This document shows, one piece after another, positions 165 to 3,174 of a stretch of 3,174 bases of DNA. Location of the stretch: assembly GCF_024298765.1 (NCBI RefSeq), contig NZ_CP101217.1. One strand, written 5' to 3'. Source of the stretch: Escherichia coli. GTDB taxonomy: Bacteria; Pseudomonadota; Gammaproteobacteria; Enterobacterales; Enterobacteriaceae. The notes below the pieces were generated by a model that saw only the letters and a list, made by a program, of their open reading frames with translations, made no database searches and was not told where the DNA came from. Positions within the stretch are counted from its first letter, which is position 1. Every line of letters begins with the position of its first letter. A program made the translations under genes and the position numbers.

Positions 165-266
165 AGCAAAAAAAAAAAAAGGATCTGCATCATGTGAGAG
201 TGATCCCACCGCTCGCCGCAGCCCCAGCGACCGAACGTAGTGAGCGAGTGGGCGAGGAAGCGGAAG
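165..266 (+). other. ColE1/pMB1-like origin-proximal segment (A13 tract plus conserved downstream block)
   Basis: A13 homopolymer at 168-180. Block 208-266 ACCGCTCGCCGCAGCC...GTGAGCGAG...GCGAGGAAGCGGAAG closely resembles the pBR322/pUC segment ACCGCTCGCCGCAGCCGAACGACCGAGCGCAGCGAGTCAGTGAGCGAGGAAGCGGAAG (recalled), which lies just downstream of the ColE1-type replication origin on the RNAII-sense strand, in the region of the primosome assembly sites. Confidence 0.35.
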
Positions 267-379
267 TGAACCGGAAACCACATTGAGCACGTACGCACCT
301 ATGCCAGATCCGCGCGTAGCGCGTCGCGAAATCGAAAACATTGAACACCGGCAGGCAAACGCACCACCACGCAGCGGAA

Positions 380-1919: not shown

Positions 1920-2450
1920 ATGGCGAGTACAGAAGAGGGGTTGCTCACGCTCTTGTTGTCCGTTGAGCATTTGAAAAACACTGCGATAGAACAACAGAAA
2001 GCGGTTGCAGACACGCTGGCGGTCGCAAGGGAAACACTGCGGGGGTATCGGGATATTTCTGACAGTGTTGTAAAACAGGTTAGCGATGAAGTCAGAAAAG
2101 GGGTACAGAAAACGGACATTGCGGGGCTGATGGGTGAGCGCATGACCCAGGATTTTCAGCGTCTTGAAGAGACTGTGGCAAAGATGAGAGCCAACGCGGA
2201 GGCGCTTAACAAGGACATTGCGACAATTCATCACAATGTTGTTAAAGAATACAACACGCTCAATAAATACAGTCTGAAATGGTTTATCGGTGTTACGGTC
2301 AGTTTTCTGGTCATGTTCTCGTTGCTTGGCTGGTTTACCAAAACGTTGATCGACAGGAACTACACCGCGACGGAGGTCGTGTATCAGAAAATTGTTGATA
2401 TTGAAAAGAAACTGGACAAACCAGCAACAGGGAAGAGCCGGAAAAACTGA
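1920..2450 (+). CDS. mobilization-associated membrane protein, possibly MobB-like (176 aa; coiled-coil N-terminus, single C-terminal TM helix)
   Basis: ATG at 1920 lies 11 nt after the mobA stop, with AGGGGA RBS-like sequence at 1908-1913 (GGGGA centred about 8 nt upstream), implying operon coupling. Residues ~1-118 are charged and heptad-like (E/K/Q/A-rich). Hydrophobic segment WFIGVTVSFLVMFSLLGWF (aa 121-139, nt 2280-2336) is followed by a short basic tail. The antisense 200-aa ORF (1905-2507) has junk-like composition. Functional assignment is by position and by analogy with the membrane-associated MobB of IncQ plasmids, not by recognised sequence identity. Confidence 0.7.
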   Translation: MASTEEGLLTLLLSVEHLKNTAIEQQKAVADTLAVARETLRGYRDISDSVVKQVSDEVRKGVQKTDIAGLMGERMTQDFQRLEETVAKMRANAEALNKDIATIHHNVVKEYNTLNKYSLKWFIGVTVSFLVMFSLLGWFTKTLIDRNYTATEVVYQKIVDIEKKLDKPATGKSRKN

Positions 2451-2475
2451 CGCGCTTCGCTTGTCCAACGCCTCA

Positions 2476-2502
2476 CGGGACGCGAAAAAATTCCGCGTCC
2501 CG
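2476..2502 (+). terminator. candidate hairpin terminator downstream of the mobA operon
   Basis: 9-bp GC-rich stem CGGGACGCG (2476-2484) / CGCGTCCCG (2494-2502) with a 9-nt A-rich loop, 26 nt after the ORF stop. The downstream T-tract is interrupted (TTCACCGTTTTCT), so intrinsic-terminator assignment is weak; it could instead be a structured single-strand site. Confidence 0.35.
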
Positions 2503-2703
2503 TTCACCGTTTTCTGATGAGAAAGTTTGCCGTTTTGACCCGTTCGGTGCTCAGATTTGGCGAAATTGATTCCGAATCACTTTTGTGAATAGTTATGCAA
2601 GCCCCTGGAAACGTTTCTGACGCGTTTTTTGAGGTAGGGGTGGGGGAAAGCATGGTTTTTTGATGTTTTGAGCGTAAAAGCGTGAAAAATCGCGTTATTG
2701 TGC

Positions 2704-2860: not shown

Positions 2861-3174
2861 TCTTCAAGCATTACCGACCGCACAGCCTCCCCAGAATCCC
2901 GAAAAAATCCTGTTTTTGCAGATGATTGCGTGTTTGCAAAGACCGTTTGCGGTTGGGGGAGCTGTGACGACGGCAACCGCACGCGTGAGAGTTCCGCTAC
3001 CGGCGCAGAGAGTTTCATCGACAGCGGACACCTGATGAGTTGCCACAAAAACCGTATGTAGCGCGGCTAGATTGGTTGAGTTAGACCTTGGCGGCAGTTC
3101 CCGGTATGTGGTGGCGTGACGGGTGAGATGGTGCGGCGAAGACGCATACGTCACGCAGGCGCGGGTTCTTCCAC

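Follow-up and report, generated by a model that had tools for sequence, protein, structure and literature searches.

The closest described counterparts of the DNA considered here are the cer-type sites and the single-strand initiation (ssi) signals of ColE1-type plasmids. In cer of ColE1, A-T tracts phased at about 10.5 bp lie between the ArgR and XerCD sites (PMC2831885), and for the promoter Pcer a 15-bp spacer is reported to restrict activity (PMC5935869), with XerCD and FIS acting as repressors in plasmid monomers (PMC2831885). Plasmids of the MOBQ42/Col156 kind have also been reported with a cer-like site (PMC6856555). In ColE1-type plasmids ssiB lies further downstream than ssiA (PMC3167613), and pBR322 is described as having a second primosome assembly site, PAS-BH, on its H strand (PMC8392549). 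Here, we report on the stretch 2448-2735 of a 3174-bp sequence from Escherichia coli. The whole of this sequence is called the window below, and in a database sequence comparison it proved to be one complete circular plasmid, equal to NZ_CP084293. On the evidence of alignments, 2448-2735 is mosaic: a strand-specific hairpin cassette stands beside a cer arm devoid of its Xer core, which is joined to a putative RNAII promoter. The best joint explanation, which we hold with moderate confidence, is that the hairpin would act as a priming signal on the transferred strand and that the arm would still be bound by ArgR and PepA and serve the primer promoter. Related plasmids and contigs are given L numbers where they need to be told apart.

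The cer-type arm and its missing core

The features of the right-hand part of the region are as follows.

2513-2702, plus strand (RNAII orientation): cer-type accessory sequences (ArgR/PepA arm), assigned by homology
2519-2546, plus strand: conserved left block of the arm, GAGAAAGTTTGCCGTTTTGACCCGTTCG
2584-2601, plus strand: ARG-box-like site, TGTGAATAGTTATGCAAG, aligned with a segment of ColE1 cer
2608-2630, plus strand: conserved block AAACG-TTCTGACGCGTTTTT(T), taking in the palindrome discussed below, ACGCGT and the first T6 run
2633-2646, plus strand: G-tract, lineage-specific
2656-2689, plus strand: A/T tracts from the ARG box to the promoter, namely T6 2656-2661, T4 2666-2669, A4 2676-2679 and A5 2685-2689 (PMC2831885)
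2704-2732, plus strand: putative RNAII promoter, with -35 TTGCGA 2704-2709, a 17-bp spacer and -10 TAGAAC 2727-2732, the -10 overlapping GGAGCGTAGAA
2733-2838, minus strand: RNAI-like antisense RNA of three stem-loops, with a terminator at 2737-2760 and then a T-run encoded by A6 2734-2739

Database and pairwise alignments identify 2513-2702 as homologous to the accessory arm of cer-type Xer sites. About 1700 plasmid records have a counterpart of the 111 bases 2519-2629, at 73-87% identity, including Col156 plasmids and ColE1-like remnants beside colicin or exclusion genes on IncF plasmids, and every matching locus that was inspected has a XerC-6 bp-XerD core with at most one mismatch some 70-80 bp beyond the match. 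The whole of 2513-2702 can be aligned with ColE1 cer (core 3909-3938), ARG-box segment included, and with five other complete sites; the ColE1 segment opposite TGTGAATAGTTATGCAAG is presumably the ARG box of ColE1. The likeness to ColE1 cer and to ColE2/Col156-type sites extends over about 190 bp of accessory sequence and includes the placement of the ARG box. Shared with cer sites are also the block AAAACG..TGACGCGTTTTT, the T-tracts that follow in line with it, and the orientation relative to RNAII (PMC2831885). The tracts at 2625-2630, 2656-2661, 2666-2669, 2676-2679 and 2685-2689 are kept in position across relatives, and the strongest AA/TT periodicity of about 10 bp in the plasmid is found at 2611-2713, with a shuffle control that was weak. 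A protein-binding site was one of three options that an earlier note, written from the bare sequence, had offered for this spacer, and homology supports that option in the form of an ArgR/PepA accessory arm.

The core that should follow such an arm was not found on either strand of the window or of seven relatives with the same replicon, with spacers of 6-8 bp allowed. The best combined XerC and XerD match in these eight plasmids had at least 8 mismatches in 22 positions, which is the level of background, while six positive controls had 0-1. Nor was the central region with its XerD-binding arm (TTATGGTAAAT) found in the window or the seven relatives. Since both of these parts are missing, Xer dimer resolution would be impossible for this site. 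Unlike cer sites, the window also has no Rcd coding sequence, and the locus is not classifiable as a Xer recombination site.

What does occur at the expected end of the arm is an 11-mer, GGAGCGTAGAA at 2721-2731, which resembles an XerC arm (compare the GGTGCGTACAA-like arm) and the GGGGCGTACAA of Col156-type sites. Its phase on the helix is compatible with that of the ARG box, from which it is about 20 bp more distant than in complete sites, and it could for that reason be taken as half of an unconventional core, with XerC on GGAGCGTAGAA and XerD on a diverged arm, so that the region would be a working Xer site after all. We consider this very unlikely. The sequence to the right of GGAGCGTAGAA (CGAAAAAAGCCCGCCGTTA) matches an XerD arm at only about 1 of 11 positions and is instead the RNAI terminator and RNAII start, conserved as such, and the best XerD arm anywhere in the plasmid has two or three mismatches and no partner arm.

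A putative primer promoter at the end of the arm

The promoter-like elements TTGCGA-17-TAGAAC are kept in 6 of 6 aligned family sequences from about five lineages, L012 included, and the loops of the RNAI-like RNA vary between lineages, as expected of incompatibility determinants. The plasmid's replicon has no Rep protein. It is read as ColE1-like because the -35/-10 pair precedes a three-stem-loop antisense RNA, because relatives sharing the control region encode Rop, because the plasmid has a homolog of ssiA (below), and because one relative is typed Col(MG828). An Rfam scan of the whole window at E-values up to 1 gave no match, the RNAI model RF00106 included, and a generic promoter scan of the window did not list 2704-2732. 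The earlier note's description of a non-coding stretch between the mobilization (mob) operon and a replicon is borne out, with a stop codon at 2448-2450 on one side and the probably ColE1-like replicon on the other.

The -10 box of Pcer is located at the XerC arm. Promoter-like -35 and -10 elements at the position of that arm are a feature that the window shares with cer sites, and as with ColE1 Pcer the promoter faces out of the accessory arm and has its -10 inside the XerC-arm position. At these elements Col156-type sites have TTGAGG-17-TACAAC and the window has TTGCGA-17-TAGAAC. Whereas ColE1 Pcer has a suboptimal 15-bp spacer and is subject to repression by XerCD and FIS, the window's promoter has an optimal spacer of 17 bp and no XerD site, its transcript would be RNAII, the replication primer, and about 20 extra bp separate the arm from the -10. 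The primer promoter probably either descends from the core-proximal (Pcer/XerC-arm) end of cer or has replaced it.

The region around 2448-2735 is modular, since the span 209-2629 and the sequence from 2582 onward are common to different sets of plasmids and since, in L005, the first 63 bases 3' of the last mob open reading frame (ORF) sit 1.6 kb from the remainder. The replicon is itself mosaic: 2976-3174 is 100% identical to 3374-bp Rop plasmids (compared with L006), and 2582-2975 is only 82-88% identical to them.

Live element or relic

The same core-less arm joined to RNAII is present in about 175 records, which fall into some five lineages differing by about 20-28% across the arm, and it is found in plasmids as small as 1541 bp and 1146 bp. 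The smallest, L041 (pF200-6, NZ_OY754433.1; 1146 bp), has no annotated gene and apparently consists of cis elements only: an A-run of the origin, ssiA at 30-95, a ColE1-type nic/bom at 190-242, the hairpin cassette at 253-300, the core-less cer arm at 303-490, and RNAII/RNAI. Per-column conservation in six core-less arms correlates with that in six complete sites (rho 0.46), a value that none of 5000 circular shifts attained. The ARG box persists amid flanks that are saturated with change, and is closer to the consensus in L012.

In the explanation that we favour, ArgR and PepA would still bind the arm at 2513-2702, and the curved nucleoprotein segment so formed would be the upstream region of the RNAII promoter, which it may shield from read-through of the mob operon, modulate, or both.

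Alternatively, the arm may be a fossil. A deletion or illegitimate recombination would have removed the Xer core, leaving an arm that persists by linkage and has no function beyond that of upstream DNA; it may in addition be refreshed by repeated conversion from the complete cer sites of other plasmids in the same cell. We judge this unlikely, though a serious contender. It agrees with the absence of the core, with the free drift of the G-tract and other segments, and with the composition of the arm, whose left part is closest to Col156-type cer. Doing without a site is moreover common, as about 30% of plasmids below 25 kb have no Xer site (PMC11724359). The fossil reading sits less well with the retention of the arm in plasmids of 1146 and 1541 bp that are otherwise made of recognisable cis elements only, with a conservation profile that tracks functional sites, with an ARG box that is kept and in L012 even improved, and with an arrangement common to about five lineages as divergent as those described above.

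Several observations weigh against a functional arm at the primer promoter, the frequency of plasmids with no Xer site being one of them. All functional statements on the region rest on homology. The arm is a mosaic whose left part is 87% identical to Col156-type cer, and because of this mosaicism gene conversion from complete cer sites could mimic purifying selection. The ARG-box-like TGTGAATAGTTATGCAAG is the sole match of its kind in the plasmid, has three mismatches, and is not significant taken alone, 21% of shuffles giving one as well. At the promoter end, L012 has lost the GCGTA part of the XerC-like arm (GAGTAGAAC), and the part that is kept coincides with the -10 box; as L012 keeps TAGAAC while losing GCGTA, the conserved element is the -10 box, and the resemblance to an XerC arm may be simply that. 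Finally, two alignments conflict on the -35. One places it inside an insertion of about 20 bp, and the other puts it in register with TTGAGG, so that the Col156-type TTGAGG-17-TACAAC lines up with the window's promoter and the insertion falls further upstream.

A more far-reaching version of a functional arm, and an improbable one, is that the arm senses multimers for the replication control without any recombinase. A dimer carries two such arms in direct repeat; PepA and ArgR would wrap these around each other as in cer synapsis, and the interwrapping would alter the activity of the adjacent RNAII promoter at the Pcer position. If this were true, primer synthesis, and with it the replication advantage of dimers or the copy number in dimer-laden cells, would answer to the multimer state without Xer recombination or Rcd.

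The hairpin cassette

To the left of the arm lie two further features.

2448-2464, plus strand: left flank, CTGACGCGCTTCGCTTGT, which holds the stop codon 2448-2450 and is homologous to the ColE1 bom-distal flank CTGACGCGCCCTGACGGGCTTGTC
2465-2511, minus strand: hairpin cassette, consisting of the flank CCAACGCCTCACG at 2465-2477, the stem-loop 2475-2503 and the flank CCGTTCACCGTT at 2500-2511

The hairpin CGGGACGCG/CGCGTCCCG that the earlier note had placed at 2476-2484/2494-2502 is present and can be extended, either to 10 bp at 2475-2503 or to arms of 13 nt with one bulge. GC-rich hairpins of at least 9 bp arise in only 4.3% of dinucleotide shuffles of the plasmid, and as single-stranded DNA (ssDNA) the hairpin folds with z-scores of -3.5 on the plus strand and -4.5 on the minus strand.

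By BLAST, the cassette occurs in 2085 plasmid records, nearly all of 1.7-9 kb, from E. coli, Klebsiella, Salmonella, Enterobacter, Serratia and others. When one genome per species was scanned with a pattern, 22 contigs had the cassette; the genera to which these are attributed include Dickeya, Pantoea, Erwinia, Mixta and Kosakonia. At least five unrelated stem sequences stand between the flanks CCAACGCCTCACG and CCGTTCACCG(TT), and all of them pair: CGCGAAA/TTTCGCG, CGGAT/ATCCG, GCACAG/CTGTGC, ATGGCAA/TTGCCAT and a GCGCAAT type. Read on the plus strand, every loop is rich in A. Counted from the outside in over 20 distinct variants, the variable stem of the minus strand has 129 Watson-Crick pairs, 28 G·T pairs and 0 A·C pairs; at several levels of the stem, Watson-Crick pairs of two or three different types are seen, and shifted registers pair far worse. 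The fold of the minus strand is the more stable in 19 of 20 variants. The cassette is maintained as a single-stranded structure of the minus strand: the 28 G·T against 0 A·C pairs and the greater stability in 19 of 20 variants indicate selection in that form, which therefore argues against a purely double-stranded protein site.

Two other identities were considered for the cassette. A peptide encoded on the minus strand across the hairpin was rejected, as cassette length varies (21 or 22 nt) and this shifts the frame. Identity with the element "ssi + CR" of pHW126, pIGRK and pIGMS31 was judged unlikely, those plasmids having 31-37% GC. The flank sequences, used as literature queries, returned only coincidental matches and no paper printing the cassette.

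In a Dickeya contig (L020), the stop codon of a Rop homolog with 58% identity to ColE1 Rop lies inside the loop, and the right flank encodes the C-terminus of Rop. Minus-strand ORFs of about 70 amino acids end exactly at the cassette in L005 (1200-1409) and L030 (404-625) and are convergent with the mob operon ORF.

In the main rival reading, the hairpin would work in RNA instead of DNA, as a 3'-end or terminator hairpin of leftward (minus-strand) transcripts, originally the rop mRNA, and as an insulator between convergent units in plasmids without rop. The position of the Rop stop codon and C-terminus in L020 agrees with such an origin, the minus-strand ORFs of L005 and L030 end at the cassette with the mob ORF ending on its opposite side, and G·U in RNA is as acceptable as G·T in ssDNA. 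We nonetheless regard this reading as unlikely. The minus-strand stem is followed by CGTGAGGCGTTGG with no U-tract 3' of it and is not called by a terminator scan; in the window and in L002, L009, L012 and L041 no minus-strand gene or evident promoter reads into the cassette; and a terminator would not need the strongly conserved single-stranded flanks. A classical Rho-independent terminator, another option of the earlier note, was rejected. The cassette has the GC-rich stem of such a terminator, but no U-tract comes after it, either in the plus-strand tail TTCACCGTTTTC or in the minus-strand tail CGTGAGGCGTTGG, and the terminator scan of the window passed over the hairpin.

A proposed priming signal on the transferred strand

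The cassette is best read as a priming signal of the transferred strand. As a priming or primosome-loading signal it would start complementary-strand synthesis in the recipient. Its genomic slot and strand point in this direction. In very small plasmids it comes right after the ColE1-type bom repeat GGTCAGGGCTGCGCCCCGACACCC, and in L013, L041 and similar plasmids a ColE1-type nic motif is found 60-90 nt away on the same strand. The strand that folds also carries the nic motif, in 8 of 8 MOBQ4-type loci and in 6 of 6 loci with a ColE1-type nic. Alignment with ColE1 shows a shared left flank (CTGACGCGCC..GGCTTGTC) and a shared right edge (TTCACCGT, the last Rop codons read backwards), between which ColE1 has a large double hairpin in the cassette's slot (ColE1 1545-1615). 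A BLAST comparison of the cassette with ColE1 gave no significant match.

If the double hairpin of ColE1 is PAS-BH (ssiB), the cassette resembles it in being a hairpin in the slot between bom and the end of rop on the nicked (transferred) strand, and L013-type cassettes carry GAGCGGAT, as ColE1 does. Unlike PAS-BH, the cassette has only one hairpin, which at about 29 nt is far smaller, and conserved flanks of its own. It resembles ssiA and ssiB of RSF1010, which are recognised by a plasmid primase, in being a short hairpin whose flanks matter more than the sequence of its stem and in its association with MOBQ. However, it has no sequence similarity to them, the MobA of the window (317 amino acids) would by length alone be too short for the C-terminal primase-like region reported for MOBQ4 relaxases, and the cassette is found also in plasmids that encode no protein.

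Against a transferred-strand signal stand the following points. That the slot of ColE1/pBR322 between bom and the rop stop is PAS-BH (ssiB) is our assumption, as are its exact coordinates. The strand assignment is based on RSF1010, so that the folding strand of the MOBQ4 type is only presumably, by analogy, the transferred strand. The agreement between nic and folding strand comes down to about two independent module fusions and is weak evidence. The window's hairpin, unlike PAS-BH, has no AAGCGG, the nearest word on the minus strand being GGACGCGGAA, one mismatch from the ssiA core; other stem types have not even a word like GGACGCGGAA. The invariance of the flanks is in part a matter of ascertainment, as the searches required conserved words.

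Other motifs of the spacer

All motifs named in the earlier note were found where it had placed them, but its list mixes meaningful with meaningless ones. Folding of ssDNA, which it had proposed, singles out the hairpin and finds no unusual structure in 2519-2660 (z -0.4 and -0.07 on the two strands). The conservation analysis that it had also proposed separates the hairpin, the cer-type arm and the T-runs, which are conserved, from the palindrome and the G-tract, which are not. The 10-bp palindrome GAAACGTTTC at 2608-2617 exists as described, but 3.5 such palindromes are expected by chance per plasmid, and relatives read AAAACGATTC or AAAACGCATT at this position, so that it is palindromic in none of these. 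ACGCGT lies at 2620-2625. The number of T6 runs (2625-2630 and 2656-2661) is ordinary (P=0.13), yet their position is kept across relatives. The G-tract GGTAGGGGTGGGGG at 2633-2646 is present but lineage-specific; it is kept in no relative in the alignment.

The palindrome and the G-tract, present as they are, could suggest that GAAACGTTTC with ACGCGT is an operator for a dimeric regulator or that the G-tract forms a G-quadruplex controlling the replicon. Both are highly improbable. The palindrome occurs at chance frequency and is lost in relatives, the G-tract is absent from every relative, and the plasmid encodes no candidate regulator. Single-strand initiation, the remaining option of the earlier note, is reasonable for the hairpin but not for 2519-2660, and the canonical ssiA lies elsewhere (208-285). 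The earlier note did not recognise that the region is homologous to cer, that it lacks the Xer core, and that its right end is the putative RNAII promoter.

The plasmid and its mobilization module

Outside the spacer, the plasmid has the following features.

208-285, plus strand: homolog of ssiA / n'-pas, canonical ColE1-type, containing GGAAGCGGAAG at 256-266 (BLAST against ColE1; PMC3167613)
ending at about 775: mobC-like ORF, divergent
955-1908: mobA, encoding MobA of 317 amino acids
1920-2450, plus strand: ORF of 176 amino acids in the mob operon, stop codon 2448-2450

Records 100% identical to the plasmid include pLHC5-1-3k of Citrobacter werkmanii and plasmids from Salmonella, Shigella and E. 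coli. Its mob module has a MOBQ4-type layout with an intergenic origin of transfer (oriT) of 178 bp, and is shared at 98% identity with Col156 (ColE2-like) plasmids over the span 209-2629.

The ordinary lagging-strand priming site of the plasmid is, judged by homology, the ssiA at 208-285 and so lies outside the spacer. Window positions 208-265 are 84% identical to ColE1 1308-1364, AAGCGG included, a segment that we take to be the ssiA/n'-pas of ColE1 itself. This homolog lies just downstream of a run of 13 A at 168-180, a likely mark of the origin, and sits where the module in common with Col156 plasmids has its left edge (209).

The oriT core of the MOBQ4 type (890-934) is a two-sided palindrome with the inverted repeat GTTTCT (902-907) / AGAAAC (921-926), and GCGCAC-type nic cores on both strands flank this repeat (902-926). 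The exact RSF1010-like nic core TAAGTGCGC is on the minus strand only, in 8 of 8 MOBQ4-type loci examined. L007, L012 and L015 have a ColE1-type bom repeat beside the cassette and an RSF1010-like TAAGTGCGC core about 185 nt away, which suggests that their oriT regions are hybrid or double.

L040 (NZ_CP032882.1, 6548 bp) consists of the window plasmid and a 3374-bp Rop/MOBP5 plasmid of the same replicon family, the junction lying within 199 bp over which the two do not differ (window 2976-3174). It may be either a cointegrate formed by homologous recombination or an assembly merge. It was considered as a dimer of the window plasmid and rejected as such, as two different plasmids are joined; hence it is no evidence on dimer resolution.

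Significance

Clinical and food-chain Enterobacteriaceae carry small Col-type plasmids in abundance, and annotation of these plasmids hardly ever extends to the non-coding DNA. Both elements described here are of known kinds, and the core-less arrangement and the breadth of the cassette appear to be undescribed in the literature searched. Both can now be annotated by coordinates and consensus patterns. The roughly 175 core-less plasmids, down to 1.1 kb in size, imply either that dimers are tolerated or that the arm has a second role at the promoter. The strand-specific hairpin cassette of about 50 bp is an unannotated module common to more than 2000 small plasmids whose replicons and mob systems are not related. 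If it primes the transferred strand, it would be a general establishment module for mobilizable and oriT-only plasmids.

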